Shown one piece after another: positions 3,889 through 17,194 of a stretch of DNA of 37,093 bases. A program made the translations under genes and the position numbers. This stretch comes from a virus (lineage: Duplodnaviria; Heunggongvirae; Uroviricota; Caudoviricetes): IMG/VR virus record IMGVR_UViG_2740892211_000019; one strand, given 5' to 3'. Under the pieces are notes generated by a model. It was not told the origin of the DNA. It ran no database searches and saw nothing but the letters and a program-made list of their open reading frames with translations. Every line of letters begins with the position of its first letter. Within the stretch, counting starts at the first letter, position 1.

Positions 3889-4155
3889 ATGAACGCAAAA
3901 GAAGAAGGCATTATCAACACATTAAAAAAAATATCAGAAGCGGAAGATGAAATGGCTAAAGATGCCGTGAAGCGTAGCCAACATATGGCAGCACTTCACG
4001 CACTGACCATCGCAAAAATCACCGCTGACGCAGCCAAAATTATTGAGGAACAGGGCAAAGAAATCGACACTCTTAAAACACAGTCAACAGTTGCAGCCAT
4101 GAATCCGTCCAGCATTGGACGCCGCATTTACATTCTTGGTTCGGCAAATACCTGA
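3889..4155 (+). CDS. Hypothetical early protein
   Basis: ORF track; RBS GGAG about 8 nt upstream of the ATG. Confidence 0.5.
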   Translation: MNAKEEGIINTLKKISEAEDEMAKDAVKRSQHMAALHALTIAKITADAAKIIEEQGKEIDTLKTQSTVAAMNPSSIGRRIYILGSANT

Positions 4156-4288
4156 TAACGCCTTACCACACAAAGGAGTCAGAGCTTCTGACAAATCTCC
4201 GCCTGATAGAACGCTCTCAAGCTGTATTCATTGATGACGCGCAACGTGCCGTATTTAACGCATAGGGTTACTGGACAAAGGGGGCGCA

Positions 4289-4492
4289 ATGGCAATTAAG
4301 CATTTTCCCGTCGTTCGCTTTACCTCCAGAGGGCGCGAATACGAGGTCGACGAACGCCTGATTACCACTATCGACAAACATCGTTCGGAAAAGGATGCAC
4401 ACCACATCTACCTCACTGACGGCACTTACTTCTGCGCCACCAACGTGGCGCGGGTGAATCTTATCCGACAGGTACAGGAGCCACGCAGATGA
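4289..4492 (+). CDS. Hypothetical early protein
   Basis: ORF track; stop overlaps the start of the next ORF (4489). Confidence 0.5.
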   Translation: MAIKHFPVVRFTSRGREYEVDERLITTIDKHRSEKDAHHIYLTDGTYFCATNVARVNLIRQVQEPRR

Positions 4493-6048: not shown

Positions 6049-8871
6049 ATGACGGCAGAGTACATCAGGGACTGGCAACAACCGCGCCACGCAGTGGGAC
6101 GTGAAGGAACGGGGATCCCCGTTCCTGAATCCGCGCTTTCCTCCTGGCTGGATGCCTACCGGGCAGAGAACGAGCGCCGCCAGGAAATGGCTGATGCGGC
6201 GTTCTCCGCCACGCCGCTGGGCAACCTGATTAATAAAAGCCTGGATGCACAGGAAAAACAGGACAAAACCATCACACTGGCAGGAGACGCCAGAAAACAG
6301 GTACGCGGTGCGGTGGATGAAGCCATGGCCTCGCTGCGCCTGCTGCCGTCCTATCTGCGCGATCCGCTTATTCGCCACCTCTCCTTCCTGCGCAAAAAAC
6401 AGGAAGCCGATCGCCGGAAAGGCAAAAAGAGCTGGCAGGCTGAACGCTACGCGCGCGGAACCCTGCGCAAAATATTCGAACGTCTGGACCGCACCGACCA
6501 CCGCTGGCTGACACCGGGTTATCGCTCCCTTGCCGGACGCGAACGCCTGGATGATTTGCTTTACCTGCCGCAGCTCAACAAGCACCAGATACAGACGCTG
6601 GCCACCATGACGGCGGCGATGTTCAGCAGCACCTTCGAAAAACTCTGCGATGGCTTTGGCGCGACTGATGGCGAGCTGACCATGGATGTAACGCTGAAGG
6701 CGTATCAGATGCTGGCCCGCATGGCGTTACACCTGCACGCCATGCCTCCGCATTATGACGCACTGACAACAGACAAAGACCGGAGGAACGAACCGGACAC
6801 GGAGCTGCTGCCGGGCGCAATCCTTCGCCTGACCTGTGCGGAATGGTGGAAACGCAAACTGTGGCTGTTACGTTGCGAGTGGCGGGAAGAACAACTCCGC
6901 GCCGCCTGTCTGGTTTCCAGAAAAACATCGCCCTATCTGAGCCAGGACGCGTTAAGCGAGTTTCGCGCACAGCGCGAGAAAACACGCGATTTCCTGAAAA
7001 GTTTCATGCTGGAAAACGAAGACGGGTTCACGATTGATCTCGAGACGGTGTATTACGCGGGAGTAAGTAACCCGGTTCACCGTAAGGCAGAAATGATGGC
7101 CACCATGAAGGGGCTGGAACTTCTGGCCGAAGCCCGTGGCGACAAAGCGGTGTTTCTGACTGTCACCTGCCCGTCAAAATACCACGCCACAACAGAGAAC
7201 GGTCATCCGAATCCCAAATGGAACGGGGCCACCATGCGCGACTCCAGCGATTACCTGGTTAACACGTTTTTTGCGGCGGTCCGCAAGAAACTGAACCGCG
7301 ACGGCCTGCGCTGGTATGGCATCCGCACGGTGGAGCCTCACCATGACGGCACCGTGCACTGGCATATGATGGTCTTTGCTCATCCGGAAGAAATCGACAC
7401 CATTGTGTCCCACACCCGCGATATTGCCATTCAGGAAGATCGTCACGAGCTGGGTGATGATATTACCCCACGCTTTAAGGCGGAGTACGTCGACGGCTCA
7501 AAAGGCACACCGACCAGCTACATCGCCACCTACATCGGGAAAAACCTGGACAGCCGTGCCGTGGATGGCATCGACCCGAAAACGGGCAAGCCACGCGTTG
7601 ACCACGAAACCGGAAAATCAATGGCCGAGAGCGTGGAACGCGCCATCGGCTGGGCGCGCCTTCACCGGGTCCGCCAGTTCCAGTTCTTTGGTATCCCCTC
7701 CCGTCAGGTGTGGCGTGAACTGCGCCGCCTTGCCAGCCAGATGGCTCGCAACCCGGAAGGACCGCAACGGCTGAAGGATGACGCAATGGACGCGGTTCTT
7801 GCTGCCGCTGATGCCGGATGTTTTGCCACCTACATAGAGAAACAGGGCGGCGTACTTGTTCCACGCAAGGACTACCTGATTCGCACCGCCTACGACCTCG
7901 CCGATGAGCTGAACGATTACGGTGAACAGAGCGTACAGATTTACGGGATCTGGTCACCGCTCATCGGGGAGTCTTCCCGCGTATGCACGCATCCGGACAA
8001 CTGGAAGCTGGTAAGACGCAAACCGGAAGCGGAAGACAGCGCCCGCGAAAATGGTTTTGACCTTCAGGGCGGCCCTGCCGCACCTTGGACTCGTGGCAAT
8101 AACTGTCCCCGTGTACAGGAAACGGACAACAACGGGACAGAACAGCCGGAAGAACGGCCAGCACCGTGGCCGCAGCTTCCTGACGGCGTTGACGTGAACG
8201 AATGGATGCGCTCACTGAAACGGCACGAACGCCGGGCGCTGATGCGTTCGCTGCGTGACAAACAGGCAAAAAACAGCAGTGATGAAATGCAGAGCTGGAC
8301 ACAGAGCCGCAAACAGCAGCGGCCTTTGCCTGATAACCACGAATTACTCGCTAAAGAATGGCGGGAATCTGCCGAATCTCTCGGCCTGCATATCGGTGAA
8401 CAGCAGATGCAGCACCTGTTACGGGGCGGCAGCCTGTACGTTGACGGCAGCATCATTGCACCGCAGGGATTTGAAATTGTACGCAAACCGGATACCCGCC
8501 CGGACAGCCGAATCACGCAGCTCTGGCAGCGCCTGAGCCGTAATCACGGCGTAAGCAGCACGGAGATCCGCCATAACCCGGTCGCCAGCTATCTGGAACA
8601 GCTGGGGGCATCAGACCCCGAAGCCGCCGCACGTCTGGCATCCACACTTCAGCAGGACCAGAACACCATGAACCCCCCCGTTACCGTGCTTTCTGACATG
8701 CTGCGCGCCATCCGCGACGCAGAGCACGCACAGAGAATCAGTGAAACCACTGAACGTGCCCGCCGCAAAGCAGACCTGCTGCGGGGTGGCCTGACCAGTG
8801 GAAACAAAAAACAGACAGAAACGGGATTCACAAATCCCGTAAATGAGCAAAAAACGCGCCGCGATATATGA
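6049..8871 (+). CDS. A: Replication initiation endonuclease (P2 gpA-like rolling-circle initiator), 940 aa
   Basis: ORF track. Contains the HUH-type metal-binding motif (HHDGTVHWHMMVF) and a tyrosine-bearing block (TSYIATYIGKN) typical of P2 A-family initiators; position matches P2 synteny. Longer than my recollection of P2 gpA. Confidence 0.9.
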   Translation: MTAEYIRDWQQPRHAVGREGTGIPVPESALSSWLDAYRAENERRQEMADAAFSATPLGNLINKSLDAQEKQDKTITLAGDARKQVRGAVDEAMASLRLLPSYLRDPLIRHLSFLRKKQEADRRKGKKSWQAERYARGTLRKIFERLDRTDHRWLTPGYRSLAGRERLDDLLYLPQLNKHQIQTLATMTAAMFSSTFEKLCDGFGATDGELTMDVTLKAYQMLARMALHLHAMPPHYDALTTDKDRRNEPDTELLPGAILRLTCAEWWKRKLWLLRCEWREEQLRAACLVSRKTSPYLSQDALSEFRAQREKTRDFLKSFMLENEDGFTIDLETVYYAGVSNPVHRKAEMMATMKGLELLAEARGDKAVFLTVTCPSKYHATTENGHPNPKWNGATMRDSSDYLVNTFFAAVRKKLNRDGLRWYGIRTVEPHHDGTVHWHMMVFAHPEEIDTIVSHTRDIAIQEDRHELGDDITPRFKAEYVDGSKGTPTSYIATYIGKNLDSRAVDGIDPKTGKPRVDHETGKSMAESVERAIGWARLHRVRQFQFFGIPSRQVWRELRRLASQMARNPEGPQRLKDDAMDAVLAAADAGCFATYIEKQGGVLVPRKDYLIRTAYDLADELNDYGEQSVQIYGIWSPLIGESSRVCTHPDNWKLVRRKPEAEDSARENGFDLQGGPAAPWTRGNNCPRVQETDNNGTEQPEERPAPWPQLPDGVDVNEWMRSLKRHERRALMRSLRDKQAKNSSDEMQSWTQSRKQQRPLPDNHELLAKEWRESAESLGLHIGEQQMQHLLRGGSLYVDGSIIAPQGFEIVRKPDTRPDSRITQLWQRLSRNHGVSSTEIRHNPVASYLEQLGASDPEAAARLASTLQQDQNTMNPPVTVLSDMLRAIRDAEHAQRISETTERARRKADLLRGGLTSGNKKQTETGFTNPVNEQKTRRDI

Positions 8872-8918
8872 AGCGCACACAAAACAGGCAAAAACGGGAT
8901 TTCAGAATCCCGTAAACG
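8818..8918. repeat. Two copies of a ~28-bp palindromic unit (AAACGGGATT-N5-AATCCCGTAAA) about 73 bp apart, directly upstream of parM
   Basis: Copy 1 at 8818..8848 lies inside the last codons of gpA; copy 2 at 8891..8918 overlaps a possible -35/-10 for parM. Read directly from the sequence. Confidence 0.5.
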
Positions 8919-8947
8919 ATTAATTAATCAACATAAGGAAAAGCGAC

Positions 8948-9907
8948 ATGAAAATTTGTATCGACGACGGCTCCACCAACATCAAGCTGGCATGGACTGA
9001 GAATGGCGAACGCCGCAACGCCATCAGCCCGAACAGCTTCAAGTCGGAATGGTCTGCGCCGTTCGGTGGCATGCAGCCCGCGAACTACATGCTTGATGGC
9101 GTGCGCTATGGTTTTGATCCGGTCAGCGATCGCTTTGTCCAGACGACCGACACGCAATACCAGTACAGCGATGTGAATGTAATCGCCATTCATCACGCGC
9201 TGGTCAAATCAGGCATCACGCCACAGGAGGTGGATGTGGTTGTCACCCTGCCACTGAGCGAGTATTTCGACACAAACGCACAGCCGGACATGGCCAACAT
9301 CAACCGCAAAAAAGCGAACGTTATGCGCCCGGTGGAGTACCAGAACGGCGAAGCATTCACTATCCGTAACGTGCGGGTTATGCCTGAATCCATTCCGGCT
9401 GGCTTTAAAGCACTGGCTGACATGAGTCCGTTTGAATCCCTGCTGATTGTGGATTTAGGCGGAACCACGCTGGATGTGGCAAAGGTTCAGGGGCAACTGG
9501 CAGGTATCAGCCAGGTGTTTTGCGATCCACACGTAGGCGTCTCCCTGATGGCCGGTGCCGTGCTGTCGGTGATGGCCGCTAACGGTATGCGTACCAGTCA
9601 CCACATCGCCAATACCATTATCGAACATCGCCATGATGAAGCCTGGTTGCGCCAACACATCCACAATGACGCGCATTACGCCAGCCTGATGGCGGTTATT
9701 CGTGAAAAGGAAGAAACACTGAAACAACGCGTGATCCGCGCGCTGGCGGGTTTTTCGGGTTACGGGCGGGTGATGGTTGTCGGTGGCGGGGCGGAGATTG
9801 TGGCACCCGCTATCCGCGAAGCCTGCGGAGTTAATGCGACTTTCATCGCGGACGGGGTGCCACAGTTTGCTCTGGTTAATGGGCTGTACGCAATGGACAA
9901 GGAGTAA
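8948..9907 (+). CDS. parM: ParM/StbA-family actin-like ATPase (type II plasmid partition NTPase)
   Basis: Translation carries the ParM signature blocks as I recall them from plasmid R1 StbA/ParM: CIDDGSTNIKLAW, YSDVNVIAIHHAL, VMPESIPAGF, LLIVDLGGTTLDVAKV, VMVVGGGAE. RBS AAGGAAAAG before the ATG at 8948. Confidence 0.85.
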   Translation: MKICIDDGSTNIKLAWTENGERRNAISPNSFKSEWSAPFGGMQPANYMLDGVRYGFDPVSDRFVQTTDTQYQYSDVNVIAIHHALVKSGITPQEVDVVVTLPLSEYFDTNAQPDMANINRKKANVMRPVEYQNGEAFTIRNVRVMPESIPAGFKALADMSPFESLLIVDLGGTTLDVAKVQGQLAGISQVFCDPHVGVSLMAGAVLSVMAANGMRTSHHIANTIIEHRHDEAWLRQHIHNDAHYASLMAVIREKEETLKQRVIRALAGFSGYGRVMVVGGGAEIVAPAIREACGVNATFIADGVPQFALVNGLYAMDKE

Positions 9908-9911
9908 ACCA

Positions 9912-10226
9912 ATGACGACACCAACCAGACGGATAAGTTTCTATCTGAAGCCAGTCGCCGTCAATAGTGAACGGGAGGCGTGTAATTACCTCGACAGCCT
10001 GCCAGCCTCTGAACGCAGCCGCGCGCAACGCGCGGCCTTTCTGGCCGGGCTGGCACTCATAAAACGCGATCCTGCATTTGCCTATTGGTTGGCCGAATGG
10101 CCGGAAGAAGGAGCTGCGCCAGCCAAGAATAATATTCAGAGTAAATATGCCAGCACACCTGCCACCGGAAGCAATCACAGCACTAGCGAGATAAGAAAGA
10201 ACATTCAGTCATTTTTCCCAGAGTGA
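9912..10226 (+). CDS. parR: ParR/StbB-like centromere-binding protein (ribbon-helix-helix)
   Basis: ATG at 9912 with AAGGAG upstream, 4 nt after the parM stop. N-terminal beta-strand-like RISFYLKPV, then LDSLPASERSRAQRAAFLAGLAL, which closely matches my recollection of the R1 ParR core. Confidence 0.7.
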   Translation: MTTPTRRISFYLKPVAVNSEREACNYLDSLPASERSRAQRAAFLAGLALIKRDPAFAYWLAEWPEEGAAPAKNNIQSKYASTPATGSNHSTSEIRKNIQSFFPE

Positions 10227-10245
10227 AAACAGGAGAGGAGCATCT

Positions 10246-10707
10246 ATGGCAACTATCCCCAAAAAATGGTTACAACGCAAAATTGCAGACCTTGAATCGT
10301 GTCGTGAAGACATCCCGTTTGGCCTTGATGAAAACGATCACAATATGTTAATCGCACTGAAAATCGCACTCACATCGCTGGAAGCAGAGGCAGTTATGTT
10401 CTGTATATCAGGACAAAATGTAGATTCAGAAGAACATGTATCAACCAGCAAAGCGGTTGTTGATGCCTGGGTTGAAGAATGGAATCAGGTTGACGGAAGT
10501 CCTGGCGAACCACTGTACAAAACTATGCCACTCTACTATCACGCTGCCTTGCCAGCGCCGGTAGTGCCGGAAGAAGCAACTCCGGAAAACGTAGAAATGC
10601 TCTCTGGCTATGTTTCCACATACAAATTAACCGATAGCGAGCGCGATATTGCTGCCGAAATATGGAACGCCTGCCGCGCCGCTATGCTTCATGGGAAAGG
10701 AGAGTGA
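10246..10707 (+). CDS. Hypothetical acidic protein (153 aa), third gene of the parMR operon
   Basis: ORF track; RBS AGGAGAGGAG before the ATG at 10246. No family recognised. Confidence 0.6.
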   Translation: MATIPKKWLQRKIADLESCREDIPFGLDENDHNMLIALKIALTSLEAEAVMFCISGQNVDSEEHVSTSKAVVDAWVEEWNQVDGSPGEPLYKTMPLYYHAALPAPVVPEEATPENVEMLSGYVSTYKLTDSERDIAAEIWNACRAAMLHGKGE

Positions 10708-10708
10708 T

Positions 10709-10972
10709 ATGGCAACTTTAACAAAAAAAGAACGGGCATGGTTGAACGAATTACAGGACGTTCTTGATCGCTGCCCATCACCGAAAAAAATTGGTTTTTA
10801 CACCATTGGCGATAAAAGCATTTACCTGTATGACCTGCGCCGCATGGATGAAATCATGGAGGCTCTTGATAATCGTTCGTCAATGGATTGGTGTGTTGCT
10901 GTCCATGATATGAATGCAGGGTTTGATGAAAAGATTTTGTTCCCCTCATCAGTTGAAAGCACAGCAGGATAA
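10709..10972 (+). CDS. Hypothetical protein (87 aa), fourth gene of the parMR operon
   Basis: ATG at 10709 (MATLTKKERAWLNELQ...) one nt after the previous stop, with GGAAAGGAGAG upstream. No family recognised. Confidence 0.55.
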   Translation: MATLTKKERAWLNELQDVLDRCPSPKKIGFYTIGDKSIYLYDLRRMDEIMEALDNRSSMDWCVAVHDMNAGFDEKILFPSSVESTAG

Positions 10973-11006: not shown

Positions 11007-11033
11007 AAAGCGCCTCAGGGGCGCTTTTTGTTT
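11007..11033 (+). terminator. Rho-independent terminator (AGCGCC-tcagg-GGCGCT followed by TTTTTGTTT)
   Basis: Hairpin plus T-tract read directly from the sequence, downstream of the four-gene operon. Confidence 0.7.
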
Positions 11034-11060
11034 GCACAAAAGTGCACAAATTTGCACAAT
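11033..11060. repeat. Three TGCACAA(A/T) repeats at exact 10-bp phasing
   Basis: Copies start at 11033, 11043 and 11053, immediately after the terminator and within the region where the cos site is expected. Confidence 0.5.
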
Positions 11061-11483
11061 TTTTTTGAACGACTTTTTACCCTTCCGGCCCGCATGGCGG
11101 CTGGATCCGTCAAGGATCCGTGCGTGCACAAAAAAACGCGCTTTTTCTACGCGCAGGTGACGGGGGAACAGCCCGCGTTTCAGGGGGTAAATAGCATTCC
11201 CTGAACGATGTCGCAGAGATACAACAGAATGGCTGTATTTCTCACGCTGAGCGTGAAAAAGACGTGAGGGCTTTTGATTTGATGGGGTGAAAGGTAAGGC
11301 CGTCAAAATCGCACTGAGACGGCGAGAACATGCAGTCAACGCGGTGGGATTGCGTAAGAGTCTGGCTGTCGATGATGGCAATAAGCAGGAAAGCGTCGTG
11401 AAATTATCTGATTGATACAGGAGCTGGAGAGTCGGGGCATAAATTTTTTATGCCCCGGCGAAGCAGCAGACAAGCGAAGCGCG

Positions 11484-12530
11484 TCAGGATGTGGGCTGGG
11501 TGTCCAGCAGTGCATAAGGGTTAAAGCGGATCACCTCTTCGCCAAGCCAGTCATTGATGTGCTTCATGGCCTCCATGACGGGCATCAGCTCGTTAATTGC
11601 GTAAACCCGCGCGGCCTTCTCCACATCACCAAACGCACTTTTTTCGCCCGGCATCGCCCCCATCAGTTGCGGCGGAACGCGGTGCGCAGCCAGCACATCA
11701 TCACGGGATGCCGCCTTAACATTCATGAACTCATCCTTTGCGGTGATCTGCTGGAACGGCAAAATTTGCACCCCCTCTTTGCCCCCGTTGGGCGCATGGA
11801 TGAGCACGTTTTTAAACGCACCACCACCACGCGCACCCTGTAGCGTTTCTTTCAGGGAGTCCATGCTTTCGCGGTTTACCTGCGCTGCACCGATGTAGAT
11901 GATGCACCCGGCGTGGGATCCATTGTCGTAATACAGTTTTCTGAACATGTCCGCCGAATGAGACAGGCTGGCCGAGAGTAATGCGCCAAGATATTCCGGC
12001 ATGCCGTAAATTTCCTGGTTAATGTCAGGATTCATCAGGTGGCACACTTTGCCAGGGCGAAACTGAAACGCGTCCTTGCCATCCTGCACATACCACCATG
12101 ATTCAAGATCGCTTCCGCGTCGCATGTATTTCGCCAGGGCGTGCCGTAATTTAAGCGGTTCGCCGAGCATATTGCTTCGAAGCTCAAGGAATGCGTTACC
12201 GAACACAAACCAGTCCAGCGCCAGCGCCGAGAAATCCTGCCGGGAAAGCAGCGGGTGCGGAATATAGCAGCCGAGCAATACATTGCGCTTAAAGTAAAGC
12301 GCAGACTGATGCCAGGACGTTTGCCGGGCAGCTCTTGCCAGACCGTACCAGTCCACCGGGGTTTCGTACCACCGCCCGTTATCAGCACAGTACATATTGT
12401 CCAGCAGGTCATGCCCGGTCAGGCGATAAGGACCATCAAATGTGAATGCACTGAGCGATGATTCTTTCCTGAGCGCATCAGCGAGATCAATGCGTGAACT
12501 CATGCGCACTTTTTTATTTTTTCTGCTCAT
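11484..12530 (-). CDS. Q: Portal protein (P2 gpQ-like)
   Basis: ORF track, 348 aa. Size and position match P2 gpQ; overlaps the large terminase gene by 1 nt. Confidence 0.85.
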   Translation of the reverse strand: MSRKNKKVRMSSRIDLADALRKESSLSAFTFDGPYRLTGHDLLDNMYCADNGRWYETPVDWYGLARAARQTSWHQSALYFKRNVLLGCYIPHPLLSRQDFSALALDWFVFGNAFLELRSNMLGEPLKLRHALAKYMRRGSDLESWWYVQDGKDAFQFRPGKVCHLMNPDINQEIYGMPEYLGALLSASLSHSADMFRKLYYDNGSHAGCIIYIGAAQVNRESMDSLKETLQGARGGGAFKNVLIHAPNGGKEGVQILPFQQITAKDEFMNVKAASRDDVLAAHRVPPQLMGAMPGEKSAFGDVEKAARVYAINELMPVMEAMKHINDWLGEEVIRFNPYALLDTQPTS

Positions 12531-14281
12531 CAGAACTCCATAACCGTGAAACGCTCGTTTTCTCCTTCGCCGCCAATCGGTTCGTTAATGACAGCAAGCA
12601 TGGTTGCCCACGCAAGGTCGCCGTGGCTGATCCCCCTCGCTCGGTCCGTTTCGTAAGTGATAAAGCCGCCCGGTGTTTTCACCTTACGCACGGCGTTAAA
12701 GGCCGCGACCAGCTCGCGTTCGGCGCGATCGTATTCCCACCGCCCGGCACGCATTATTTGCAGCATTTTCAGTACCAGCGACCGTTTTGATGACAGCGTG
12801 AAGGTGTACGGAATAGCAGCAGGGAAAAACCGTTTCACTATCTGATAAACAGCCTCCCCGTTCCCGCCCGTCACATCAATGCCGATGTGTTCCACGTTGT
12901 AGCGATACGTGAACTCTTCAATGACTCTGGCCTGTTCTTCAAACTCCAGCCCCTGAACGCGTCGCGTCTCCACCGTTCGAAAACGGCCACCAGGAACAGC
13001 CGGAGGAACCACCACGGACACAGCGCCGCTGTCGCCGTTGCCACTGCTGCCGTTTGCGTCATACCCAATCCATACTGGACGATTCCCCATCGGGCGGGGA
13101 GCAAAAGGTTTCCAGTCTTTCCAGTCGTCGTATCCGTCAACACCGCAGCCAATCAGGATATTCAGGTTAAATGCCGATTCCCCTTCGCGGACAAACTCAC
13201 ACATATAGAGATTGAGGAACTCGTCTTCGGTGTTTTCATCACGAATTTCGTCGATATCGGTGTGTTTCCAGCCGTGATTGACCACATCTTCCAGCGTGAC
13301 AATTTGCCGCCATGTCCGGTCAGGGCAGATAAGCCCGTTATGCAGCGTTTTCCAGTCCACAGAAAAACGCTGGCGTTTATGCGAGGCCTTTTTCTCGTTC
13401 CAGCGGTCGCCGTTCCAGTAGGCGTATGCCTCGTGCGTTTCGGTGGATGGCGTGGAGAAGTAGGTGCGCCGCAATCCGCTGAGGGTTGCCATAGCGCCAG
13501 CCACCTTGCGCAGTTCAGCAAAGCGACTGACCCAGAAAAATTCATCAAAATAAAAATTGCCCGTATAGGACTGTGCCGACGCAGCAGAAGTGCCGAGAAA
13601 ATGCAGCTCTGCGCCGTTGGAGAGGATGATTTTATCGCCCCCTTTCAGCTCCACATCAACTTCAGCCGCGGCCTTCTGAATAATGCTTTTAAACTGGAAC
13701 GCCTGACGACGCGACGCAGACAAAAAAATCTGGTTACGCTGGTAAGGTTGCGCCACATCGTCACGCAGCGCCATCAGCAGTGCTTCCTGTGCAAAATACC
13801 AGGTCGCCCCAATCTGTCGGGATTTCAGGATCATCCTGTTACGTATCCCGGCTTCCCTGCAAAGAGTCAGGGAGTCAAACCAGCCCCGCTGATGCCACTC
13901 CAGCCTGCTGATGATTTTTTCCCGCAGTGCAGCAATCTGTTCCGGCGTGAAATGATTTTTAAGTTTTTTCGCCCGGCCTTTCTTTCCTGTGGCCGTCGCA
14001 TCTGGCTGGCCATCATGCAGTTTTTTAAGCTGCCGGGTCAGCAGGTCTATTTCCTTGAAGTCACCACCTGTTTTATTCTGTTTTTCAGTAAGCTGGATGA
14101 GGCGCGCATCGATGGACTGCGTGACACGCTGCACGGGTGGCGTTTCATCCCACTGGTCGCGTTTTTTCCACGCATAAATCGTGTTCGGGTTTATTCCCAT
14201 CAGACGTGAGATTTCTGCGGGCGGATAACCCTGCCAGTAAAGTTGCCGCGCACGCTGGCGCACAAAAGCGTCCTGAATCAT
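12530..14281 (-). CDS. P: Terminase large (ATPase) subunit (P2 gpP-like)
   Basis: ORF track, 583 aa. Size and synteny match P2 gpP, divergent from the O-N-M-L operon. Confidence 0.85.
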   Translation of the reverse strand: MIQDAFVRQRARQLYWQGYPPAEISRLMGINPNTIYAWKKRDQWDETPPVQRVTQSIDARLIQLTEKQNKTGGDFKEIDLLTRQLKKLHDGQPDATATGKKGRAKKLKNHFTPEQIAALREKIISRLEWHQRGWFDSLTLCREAGIRNRMILKSRQIGATWYFAQEALLMALRDDVAQPYQRNQIFLSASRRQAFQFKSIIQKAAAEVDVELKGGDKIILSNGAELHFLGTSAASAQSYTGNFYFDEFFWVSRFAELRKVAGAMATLSGLRRTYFSTPSTETHEAYAYWNGDRWNEKKASHKRQRFSVDWKTLHNGLICPDRTWRQIVTLEDVVNHGWKHTDIDEIRDENTEDEFLNLYMCEFVREGESAFNLNILIGCGVDGYDDWKDWKPFAPRPMGNRPVWIGYDANGSSGNGDSGAVSVVVPPAVPGGRFRTVETRRVQGLEFEEQARVIEEFTYRYNVEHIGIDVTGGNGEAVYQIVKRFFPAAIPYTFTLSSKRSLVLKMLQIMRAGRWEYDRAERELVAAFNAVRKVKTPGGFITYETDRARGISHGDLAWATMLAVINEPIGGEGENERFTVMEF

Positions 14282-14435
14282 TGCTCCCCCTGAGTAATTA
14301 CAGGAAGATTACCCGCGCGCGAAACCGTTCTCCTTAACCCCCTGTTCTGGCCGTTTTCTTACAACAAAAGCCCTTTGTATCAGCCTGTTACGCTTTGCCA
14401 TCATGACTGAAGAACCAGTCAGAGGGGCAAAAACT

Positions 14436-15272
14436 ATGGCTAATGAAAAAAAGACATCCCGCAAAAAGTTTCGCGTGGCTGTCTCCGGATCAACTGTTGA
14501 TGGCCGCGAAATCAGTCCGGTGCATCTGCGTGAAGCCGCCGAGAACTTCAACCCGGATGTTTACGCCGCCCGCGTGAACGTTGAGCACTATCTCTCGCCA
14601 TGCCCGTCAAGCGAATTTTCCGCAATGGGCGATGTCACCGCGCTGAGTACGGAAGACATTACGGAAGGTCCGCTGGCCGGACGTACTGCGCTGTATGCAG
14701 AAATCGAACCGACCGAGCGCATGAAGCAGCTTGTCGCGGACGGCAAGAAAATCTATTCCAGTATCGAATTGCACCCGCAGTTCTCCGTTAACGGGCGCGC
14801 CTATCTGGTCGGGCTGGCGATGACCGACACCCCGGCAAGCCTGGGCACTGAACGCCTGAAATTCACGGCACAGCAACGTCAGGCGGTGATGACGTTCAAC
14901 AGTGTCCAGGGTGAAGCACCGCTTATCTCCGAAGCCATCGAGTCTGAAATCATCGAAATGGCAGAACAACGCCAGGAAGAAGGCACCCAGTGGTTTAACC
15001 GCGTAATGGGGATTATTGGCCGTGGCCGCAAAGCGGATGACGCCAGTTTCTCCCGTATTCAGGAAGCGGTGGAAGGCGTCGCAACGTCACAGGCCGACAT
15101 TATCGACCGTTTTAATGCGCTGGAAACCCGCCATCAGCAGGACAGCCAGAAAATCACTTTACTGACCACAGAGCTGACAGCACTGAAGGAAAAACTGCGC
15201 ACGCAGGACGGCGATCCGCAGAACCGGTTCACCGCAACGGGCGCAGCCTCCGATCAACTGGCTGACTTCTGA
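14436..15272 (+). CDS. O: Capsid scaffolding protein (P2 gpO-like)
   Basis: ATG at 14436 (MANEKKTSRKKFRVAVSGSTVDGREI...) with GAGGGG upstream. The N-terminus resembles P2 gpO as I recall it. Confidence 0.85.
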   Translation: MANEKKTSRKKFRVAVSGSTVDGREISPVHLREAAENFNPDVYAARVNVEHYLSPCPSSEFSAMGDVTALSTEDITEGPLAGRTALYAEIEPTERMKQLVADGKKIYSSIELHPQFSVNGRAYLVGLAMTDTPASLGTERLKFTAQQRQAVMTFNSVQGEAPLISEAIESEIIEMAEQRQEEGTQWFNRVMGIIGRGRKADDASFSRIQEAVEGVATSQADIIDRFNALETRHQQDSQKITLLTTELTALKEKLRTQDGDPQNRFTATGAASDQLADF

Positions 15273-15295: not shown

Positions 15296-16348
15296 ATGAA
15301 TCTGGTGATGTCAGATATTACCCGCAACAAGCTGGGTTGCTATATGGCGCAGCAGGCGTCGCTTAACAATATCCCGGTTTCCGCACTGGTATCGCGATTT
15401 ACCGTGGAACCCGCGGTGCAGCAACGTTTTGAAAACGCCTCAAAGGAAAGTACCGAATTTACGAAAAGAATTAACGTGATCGGCGTGACCGACCAGAAAG
15501 GCGAAAAAATCCTCCCGGACACCACCGGGCCAATTGCGCGCACGAATAGCAGTTATGACGGCATCAAACGCCGTAACCCGAATAACGTGATCGATATGAA
15601 GTCTCGTCAGTACCAGTGCGAACAGGTGAACTACGATACCTTTATTTCGTACCCACAGCTTGATACCTGGGCGGCCCACAGCGATTTTCAGTCCCGTATC
15701 AGTACACAGATCGCCCGGCAGGTAGCGCTTGATCGCATCATGATTGGCTTTAACGGCACATCCCACGCCTACGAGTCTGATTTTCACACCAACAAGCTGC
15801 TTCAGGACGTAAACGTGGGCTGGCTGGAGCACATCAGAACCGATGCCAGCGAGCGCGTAATGAATGACGTGACGCTGACCTCCCGCAACATGGACAACAC
15901 TGTGGCGCACGCGGGTAAGTATGCGAATGCCGATGCTCTGGTACAGGATGCGCGCTCATCCCTGCTGGATGAATGGCACAAGGAAGCTGACGACCTCGTG
16001 GTGATTATGGGGCGCAACCTGTTTAACTCGCTGCGTCTGCCCGTGCTGAACAGCATCAGCGGCCAGAATCCCAATGCGGAATTACTTGCCGGGCAGCTCA
16101 TCCTGTCATCGCGCACCATTGGCGGGCTGGGCGTGTTCCTTGCGCCGTTCTTCCCGGATGCAACGATGCTTATCACCTCGTTCAACAACCTGTCGATTTA
16201 CTGGCAGAAAGGTTCAATGCGTCGCCTGATGAAAGACGAGCCGGAATACAACCGCATCGCCACCTACCAGTCCATCAATGACGCTTATGTCGTTGAAGAC
16301 TATGGCAAGTGCGCGATGATCACTGGCCTGAAGTTCGCCGACAGCTAA
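15296..16348 (+). CDS. N: Major capsid protein (P2 gpN-like)
   Basis: ORF track, 350 aa; size and synteny. Confidence 0.9.
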   Translation: MNLVMSDITRNKLGCYMAQQASLNNIPVSALVSRFTVEPAVQQRFENASKESTEFTKRINVIGVTDQKGEKILPDTTGPIARTNSSYDGIKRRNPNNVIDMKSRQYQCEQVNYDTFISYPQLDTWAAHSDFQSRISTQIARQVALDRIMIGFNGTSHAYESDFHTNKLLQDVNVGWLEHIRTDASERVMNDVTLTSRNMDNTVAHAGKYANADALVQDARSSLLDEWHKEADDLVVIMGRNLFNSLRLPVLNSISGQNPNAELLAGQLILSSRTIGGLGVFLAPFFPDATMLITSFNNLSIYWQKGSMRRLMKDEPEYNRIATYQSINDAYVVEDYGKCAMITGLKFADS

Positions 16349-16393: not shown

Positions 16394-17194
16394 ATGATTA
16401 CTCCTGCACAACAACACTGGCAGAACGTGATGGCACAGCGCGCAGGCCGGGCGAATGAAGGTGTGGACCACGCCGCGCGTACCGCGCATGAAGAGGTGCT
16501 GTATCGTCTGCGTCTGGCACAGGCCAGGCTAAAGGGCGTACAGGCCAGAAGCGCGAAAGCCGCCATCAAAAAAGAGTTGTTGCCGGACTTTTCCGGCTGG
16601 ATTGAGGGAACGCTGGAGACTGACGGCGGGCAACAGGACGAAGTAATTGCCACGCTGATGGTGTGGGCGATTGACTGCGGCGATCTTCCGCTGGCGCTGC
16701 GTATTGGTGCATATGTGGTCCGTCACAACCTCATCATGCCGGATAACTTTGGCCGTACTGCTGCCACGGTACTGACCGAAGAAATCTGCAACCCGGTACT
16801 GACGCAGGCCGGGACGGATGCCGACGCGGATTTATCCGCCTTTATCGAACCACTGGACACACTTTGGGAAATTGTCGCCAACCAGGACATGCCGGACGAA
16901 GTGCGCGCCAAATTATGCAAGGCGTGTGCCTTTGCCCGTCGTGGCCTGACCGATGCAGACAACATGGCCTCATCACTGAAGCTGCTGCGCGAAGCGATGC
17001 ACCTGAACCCGAACGCAGGTGTGAAACGCGAGATTGCAACCCTTTCCCGCGCCCTGAAAAAAGCCGATTCCGCAGCCGCACCAGAAGACGCCAGCGCACA
17101 GCAGACGCAGGACGAAAGCAGCAAAAGTAAAAAGACAACGCAGAAGCCTGCAACACGAAAAACCACCGCGACGCAGAAAGCAAAGCGCGGTTAA
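16394..17194 (+). CDS. M: Terminase small / endonuclease subunit (P2 gpM-like)
   Basis: ORF track, 266 aa; synteny after N. Confidence 0.85.
   Translation: MITPAQQHWQNVMAQRAGRANEGVDHAARTAHEEVLYRLRLAQARLKGVQARSAKAAIKKELLPDFSGWIEGTLETDGGQQDEVIATLMVWAIDCGDLPLALRIGAYVVRHNLIMPDNFGRTAATVLTEEICNPVLTQAGTDADADLSAFIEPLDTLWEIVANQDMPDEVRAKLCKACAFARRGLTDADNMASSLKLLREAMHLNPNAGVKREIATLSRALKKADSAAAPEDASAQQTQDESSKSKKTTQKPATRKTTATQKAKRG

Follow-up and report, generated by a model that had tools for sequence, protein, structure and literature searches.

What do three copies of one heptamer, set at exact 10-bp intervals between a cargo operon and the portal gene of a prophage, do? The window, by which we mean the whole stretch of 37,093 nucleotides analysed here, is a P88-like prophage (Xuanwuvirus, Peduoviridae) of the P2 family. 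A sequence-only reading had reported the heptamer TGCACAA three times in exact 10-bp steps, and had proposed two candidate roles for it: a site for ParR or another cargo protein, or a terminase recognition element near the packaging site, cos, which it expected between the array and the portal stop codon. Our comparative analysis suggests that the TGCACAA triple is probably the distal part of the cos packaging signal, that is, a terminase recognition array in this P88-like prophage.

A phased array next to the cargo operon

The three copies were confirmed at 11033, 11043 and 11053. TGCACAA as such is not over-represented, as it occurs 9 times in the whole window against 9.5 expected; what is unusual is the arrangement of the copies, not the frequency of the heptamer. 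Position 11033 is the only place in the window where an exact 7-mer triple with 10/10 spacing occurs, and such a triple appeared in 1 of 5000 windows simulated with a first-order Markov model. When any spacing of 9-12 bp was allowed, an exact 7-mer triple was seen in 20 of 5000 first-order Markov simulations, and the analytic expectation for an exact 7-mer triple is 1.5e-4. The genes and elements around the array are as follows:

6049-8871, replication endonuclease
8948-9907, ParM (PF06406)
9777-10226, ORF encoding a ParR/StbB-like protein (PF10784)
10246-10707 and 10709-10972, two small ORFs without a Pfam family match
11007-11027, + strand, terminator hairpin of the Rho-independent type (9-pair stem and T-run), which closes the upstream cargo operon
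11033-11185, conserved block
11484-12530, - strand, portal gene, gpQ homologue (PF04860), transcribed towards cos
12530-14281, - strand, terminase large subunit, gpP homologue (PF06056, PF03237, PF17289)
14403-15272 and 15296-16348, scaffold and capsid genes
16394-17194, + strand, terminase small subunit, gpM homologue (PF05944, E = 1.4e-36)

The cargo region (8948-10972) thus occupies the interval between the replication gene and the conserved block, which opens with the array. The array begins 61 bp beyond the stop codon (10972) of the last cargo ORF and 6 bp past the terminator-like hairpin, while 425 bp separate it from the portal stop codon (11484). This closeness to the cargo operon and its terminator, together with the fact that phased direct repeats are typical of ParR-type sites, speaks for the first of the two candidate roles, in which ParR or the products of the two small ORFs would bind the repeats as a centromere-like site or an operator. 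The array shares with type II parC, as in the ParR iterons of plasmid R1, its short, helically phased direct repeats beside parMR, but it has 3+1 copies only and lies past the operon terminator instead of at the parM promoter.

Type II parC normally sits immediately upstream of parM, and the window carries another repeat in this place. It is a 43-nt direct repeat (8804-8846 and 8877-8919, 81% identical), each copy of which contains the palindrome ACGGGATT(N4)AATCCCGT; copy 2 is located in the 76-bp gap before parM, and copy 1 inside the 3' end of the replication gene. The pair at 8804-8919 is likely to be the parC centromere or the parMR operator, and in this respect it is a better parC candidate than the TGCACAA array.

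Equivalence with the cos sites of P2, 186 and P4

The second candidate role agrees with the gene order, as the block occupies the position of a P2-family cos: it lies between the replication gene with its variable hotspot and the portal gene Q, and both Q and P are transcribed towards it. We found no cos annotation for P88-like phages, and P2 itself was absent among the blastn matches to the window. The records of P2, 186 and P4 are annotated with experimentally known cohesive ends, 5' overhangs of 19 nt, and the comparison with the P2 and 186 cos regions that the sequence-only reading had put forward revealed a TGCAT triple that is equivalent to the array and equally far from the known nick. 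Counted from this nick, the right end of P2 has three TGCAT copies (-123, -111 and -101) and one TGCATT (-29). The same TGCAT arrangement is present in 186 and P4, with the P4 copies at -124, -111, -101 and -29 and a proximal copy that reads (T)GCATT.

The window has a counterpart to the proximal copy, a fourth identical TGCACAA on the + strand. When the nick was set 31 bp past this repeat 4, repeat 1 came to lie at -123, as in P2, and the following layout was obtained:

11033-11039, + strand, repeat 1 (TGCACAA), the left edge of the conserved block, -123 relative to the predicted nick
11043-11049, + strand, repeat 2 (TGCACAA), at -113 from the predicted nick
11053-11059, + strand, repeat 3 (TGCACAA), at -103 from the predicted nick, with a T-run after it (11060-11066)
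11067-11124, + strand, spacer of variable sequence and conserved length
11125-11131, + strand, repeat 4 (TGCACAA, then an A-run), proximal to cos and 31 bp short of the predicted nick
11149-11155, + strand, (G/A)CGCGCA heptamer (GCGCGCA box), directly left of the predicted top-strand nick
11156-11174, + strand, predicted 19-nt cohesive end, GGTGACGGGGGAACAGCCC, with nick positions by homology

The window therefore shares three features with P2, 186 and P4: the site is flanked by the portal gene and by the variable region that follows the replication gene, its motif copies are arranged as a distal group of three (about -123 to -101) and a single proximal one (about -30), and it has a G+C-rich 19-nt end. 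P2 and the window also agree in the step of 72 bp that separates the third copy from the fourth. In contrast, the motif is TGCACAA in the window and TGCAT in P2, 186 and P4, the distal copies are spaced by 10+10 bp against 12/13+10, and the proximal copy lies 31 bp from the nick against 29 bp. The kind of element is a known one, a cos with repeated recognition elements, whose motif has diverged here.

Placed by the conserved spacing, GGTGACGGGGGAACAGCCC matches the P2 cosL sequence GGCGAGGCGGGGAAAGCAC at 13 of 19 positions and differs from it at 6. A mismatch search of the window with the P2 cohesive end, allowing up to 3 differences, returned nothing, so the predicted end was located solely through the repeat spacing. 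The expectation that cos lies between the array and the portal stop was in this way borne out by homology, and we infer that the top strand is nicked at 11155/11156 and the bottom strand at 11174/11175. The same GGTGACGGGGGAACAGCCC is found unchanged in the Novemvirus phage phiT5282H and in many Enterobacterales prophages, and relatives also carry the intermediate end forms GGCGAGGCGGGGGAGCAAG and GGCGACGGGGGGACAGCGC.

None of the GenBank phage records that we retrieved begins at the predicted nick. The linear record of P88_4B11 breaks near window position 11078, within the spacer; we considered its ends as a candidate cos and rejected them, as the break has no end-like sequence and is probably arbitrary. 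This virion-derived record (LR595891.1, positions 79-100) also reads GGTGACGGGGGGACAGGTTTCAGG where the window and most relatives have GGTGACGGGGGAACAGCCCGCGTTTCAGG (window 11156-11185). The difference amounts to a 5-nt gap inside or beside the predicted cohesive end, which may reflect natural variation or an assembly effect at genome ends. We also observed a minus-strand terminator-like hairpin at 11136-11154 (GCGCGTAGAAAAAGCGCGT, followed by a T-run), between repeat 4 and the predicted nick. P2, 186 and P4 have a GC-rich dyad immediately left of the nick as well (CCGCCCCG..AAGCGGGCG).

How much of this region has been regarded as cos in the P2 family? The conserved cos core of P2 and P4 is given as 55 bp (Ziermann & Calendar 1990, as quoted in PMC9594776, PMC3931495 and PMC9122126), and P4 is said to share cos alone with P2 (PMC9122126, PMC9594776). 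A core of this length would take in the proximal copy and not the distal triple. The literature on P2/P4 cos accessible here, to which the primary deletion study does not belong, describes nothing beyond the 55-bp conserved core. Our comparison indicates that the functional packaging signal of the P2 family, with its conserved 3+1 repeats, spans about 150 bp and is larger than this usually quoted core.

Conservation of the block and its independence from cargo genes

Because pattern scans select for the repeats themselves, we re-collected loci through the portal protein, independently of the repeats. A cos-like anchor was present in 71 of the 80 portal-ascertained loci, and 32 portal-ascertained representatives that are less than 80% identical upstream of the nick were aligned. 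In these 32 representatives, the information content per position was as follows:

17 bp left of repeat 1, 0.14 bits
Repeat 1, 1.20 bits
Repeat 2, 1.51 bits
Repeat 3, 1.66 bits, the best conserved of the distal three
Spacer, 0.61 bits
Repeat 4, 1.70 bits
GCGCGCA box, 1.48 bits
19-nt end, 1.63 bits

Thus, the repeats are as constrained as the cohesive end, and conservation ends at repeat 1. Nearly all of the relatives collected through the portal protein carry repeat 3; many have a degenerate repeat 1, and some have just two good distal copies. Repeats 3 and 4 lie 72 bp apart in 22 of the 32 representatives and 71 bp apart in 8, and in every one of the 32 the nick follows repeat 4 at 29-32 bp.

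Spacing that is conserved more than the spacer sequence could also be expected of an architectural element of cos, in which phased A/T tracts would give an intrinsic bend or a host DNA-bending protein would bind. Each copy is indeed followed by an A/T tract in 10-bp phase (CAAAAG, CAAATT and CAATTTTTTT, with CAAAAAAA at the fourth copy), and the T-run after repeat 3 is moderately conserved (1.01 bits). However, the most conserved positions of the repeats are the GCAC cores and not the A/T tracts, and the TGCAT copies of P2, 186 and P4 lack comparable A-tracts. Moreover, the IHF consensus (WATCAANNNNTTR, up to 1 mismatch) had no consistent place in the spacers of the 32 representatives, and a spacer dyad in a fixed register fared no better, with 54.7% of cells paired against 54.4% in shuffles. 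We consequently regard an architectural role as unlikely, and retain terminase recognition as the probable function. A conserved hairpin or dyad in the spacer was also considered and rejected, as RNAalifold gave no consensus structure and a specified 6-bp helix was no better than shuffled sequence; individual spacers do contain GC-rich dyads, in shifting registers.

The block is widespread. The 156-bp stretch 11025-11180 is found in 1139 of 5426 complete E. coli genomes (21%). We examined 40 of these E. coli alignments, taken at even steps through the ranked list, and 29 of the 40 have their left end at query base 9, which is position 11033. Other P88-like phages align with the window from a point between 11008 and 11033 onwards, in the direction of the portal gene, and four records begin to align exactly at 11033. 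The terminator at 11007-11027 lies outside the conserved block, and homology in relatives often begins after it, at 11033. Outside this group, Enterobacter phage phiT5282H (Novemvirus) matches the window across 11027-11177 only, with 74% identity. It carries TGCACGA, TGCACAA and TGCACAA in 10-bp steps, a TGCACAA 72 bp further on and GGTGACGGGGGAACAGCCC 31 bp beyond this copy, all with a different spacer (in the coordinates of L006, repeats at 2507, 2517, 2527 and 2599 and cos at 2630). Pattern scans found the layout in many IMG/VR contigs and in prophages of Pantoea, Mixta, Citrobacter, Enterobacter, Erwinia, Symbiopectobacterium, Trabulsiella and Arsenophonus, and a group matching Klebsiella phage 3LV2017 combines TGCACAA repeats with the near-P2 end GGCGAGGCGGGGGAGCAAG.

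Three side observations came from these searches. The triple TGCACAA-N3-TGCACAA-N3-TGCACAA occurs many times in Bryobacterales/Bryobacteraceae MAG contigs, sometimes several times per contig; at these triples a fourth copy accompanied by a cos-like sequence is absent at +92, there is no portal gene in the neighbourhood, and the triples look like an unrelated dispersed repeat. A contig assigned to Vagococcus sp. WN89Y (NZ_JBQPOM010000071.1) carries a P88-like prophage whose portal protein is 99.5% identical to that of the window, which suggests that the assembly is contaminated or mislabelled. Finally, short CDSs annotated as hypothetical proteins run over the cos region in P88 and related records, at window positions 11028-11204 and 11287-11415 and, in the record L002, at 4107-4250 and 4270-4398. 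Their span overlaps with the conserved non-coding block, and they are unlikely to be real genes.

If the repeats served the cargo proteins, they should travel with the cargo genes. We analyzed the 73 loci that have the full block and at least 3.5 kb of upstream sequence. ParM and ParR are encoded within 3.5 kb upstream in 41 of them and neither is in the other 32, where the block is kept all the same, and the two small ORFs of the window are shared by just 2 of the 73. At these 73 loci, 46 distinct 60-nt left flanks adjoin repeat 1, and other cargo found beside the block includes an FtsH-like gene with a large ORF and a Phd/Doc pair. Consequently, the distribution of the array, in contrast to that of a type II parC, is unlinked to parMR. 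P2-family phages from other genera have the block too, as does a satellite-like element, the homology with relatives runs from the repeats towards cos and not towards the cargo, and the usual place of a type II parC is taken by the 43-nt repeat with its internal palindrome upstream of parM. The repeats thus belong to the phage backbone and not to the cargo. Of the two candidates named at the outset, the comparative evidence favours the cos element, while the ParR or cargo-protein site is largely refuted by its distribution; we rejected it and consider it very improbable.

P2-like phages have been described to carry a hypervariable hotspot directly adjacent to cos (PMC9122126), and this report fits the alignments that start at 11033. 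The exact coincidence of repeat 1 with the boundary between variable cargo and conserved DNA raises a further alternative, namely that the repeats are a promoter or operator, a boundary element of the hotspot or a recombination junction for cargo exchange, and have no role in packaging. By our own reading of the coordinates, the equivalent TGCAT triple of P2 overlaps the upstream part (-35 region) of the old promoter, where it could have a second role. In the window, however, there is no promoter-like site overlapping the repeats, and an Rfam search of the intergenic region gave sub-threshold matches only. The orientation of the cargo varies, as P2 old is directed away from cos and the operon of the window towards it, whereas the orientation of the repeats relative to cos is constant. 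In addition, a boundary at the edge of a selected cos signal is what packaging selection alone would be expected to produce. This alternative therefore seems quite improbable to us. With the array read as part of cos, it is defined exactly where the hotspot of defence and cargo genes borders on cos.

Probable terminase recognition, satellites and a possible packaging specificity

How might the terminase use such a signal? The order of its parts is three copies on one face of the helix (-123, -113 and -103), a spacer of fixed length and free sequence, a copy at -31, the GCGCGCA box and the 19-nt end, and the array lies on that side of cos which will form the right end of the genome. In our model, the terminase (gpM and gpP), acting as an oligomer, would recognise the four motif copies. 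The fixed 71-72 bp spacing would allow the distal triple and the proximal copy to be contacted together, and the nuclease of the terminase would thereby be positioned on the nick sites, which follow the proximal copy at 29-31 bp. We propose this joint contact because the 10-bp phasing, the 71-72 bp held across unrelated spacers and the held distance to the nick would all be expected of it. That a terminase, and not a host protein, is the binder would likewise follow from this model. For the subunit that would read the motif, gpM is the conventional candidate, and gpP, whose homologue in the window has an N-terminal HTH (Terminase_5, PF06056), is a candidate as well. The gpM and gpP homologues are 36% and 44% identical to their P2 counterparts, respectively, with no decisive pattern as to which subunit reads the motif.

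The cosB site of phage lambda has the layout R3-I1-R2-R1 and is bound by gpNu1 with IHF. The window resembles it in having several copies of a short recognition motif beside the nick, one near and the others past a spacer (3+1 copies within 123 bp of the predicted nick), and by analogy a bridging terminase oligomer might position the nuclease here too. The differences are considerable. There is no sequence or protein homology; the small subunit belongs here to another family (PF05944); an IHF-type site was not found in the spacer; and the repeats are direct, in 10-bp phase and on the side of the right genome end. The array resembles lambda cosB in logic and is not a member of that family.

Two combinations of motif and end were seen in the P2 family. 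TGCAT with a GGCGAGG end is present in P2, 186 and the examined Psu-type P4-like satellites. TGCACAA with a GGTGACG or GGCGAGGCGGGGG end is present in Xuanwuvirus, Novemvirus, Klebsiella and other Enterobacterales P2-like phages. We ascertained 80 P4-like satellites through Psu, with the cos-like sequence taken at least 130 nt downstream of psu. Such a sequence was located in 74 of the 80, and in all 74 the end is of the P2/186 type. Among them are 48 distinct sequences, of which we inspected the 39 most frequent; all 39 show the TGCAT 3+1 arrangement, save for single-base changes in one copy, with GGCGAGG or GGCGTGG ends. No TGCACAA-type P4-like satellite was found among the inspected sequences from the 80 Psu loci or among the IMG/VR pattern matches. 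Since TGCACAA-type prophages are present in more than a fifth of the complete E. coli genomes, this suggests that P4-like satellites may not be packaged by P88-like helpers.

A different kind of element does carry the block. Contig QAKE01000006.1 (12,723 bp) has two copies of it at a distance of 12,207 bp, both of them in a terminal duplication of 507 nt. The unit of about 12.2 kb encodes an Ogr/Delta-type zinc finger, a Toprim primase, two integrases, a 240-aa protein without a Pfam match and a P2-family major capsid homologue with 39% identity to the gpN of the window. We found no portal, terminase or scaffold homologue on this contig. When its 4.7-kb cos-proximal part (L248), the part covered by this comparison, was compared with E. 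coli genomes, the sole match (about 366-543) was the block from repeat 1. Thus, an element without packaging genes keeps exactly this block, which is the strongest available argument that the block is a packaging signal. By its gene content the unit is satellite-like, with a putative dependence on a helper. On the reverse strand, the last 25 nt of the contig show that the assembly stops 16 nt into the predicted end (GGTGACGGGGGGACAG) and continues with AGATGTGTA, which we take to be part of a Nextera-type adapter. This stop could correspond to a physical DNA end at cos or be an artefact, and we treat it as a weak hint.

We tentatively propose, as a possibility and not as an expectation, that P2-family cos sites fall into at least two specificity classes defined by the 3+1 motif and the end, and that the class decides which satellites a helper packages, P88-like phages being invisible to P4 and exploited by satellites of about 12 kb. 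This reading of the motif classes is unproven. If it is true, an undescribed family of satellites of about 12 kb, with an Ogr/Delta activator and its own P2-type capsid gene, exploits P88-like prophages, and TGCAT versus TGCACAA would be a simple, testable determinant of packaging specificity between helpers and satellites. Apart from this, the comparison places cos, and predicts the cohesive end, for the P88-like group, a very common group of E. coli prophages. For the design of P2/P4-type cosmids or transducing particles, the flanking DNA to keep is now indicated.

The label of contig QAKE01000006.1, a Bacillota MAG, probably stems from a binning error, and the element on the contig does not look like the Psu/Sid-type relatives of P4. 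A related integrated copy is present in Apirhabdus apintestini (CP138906).
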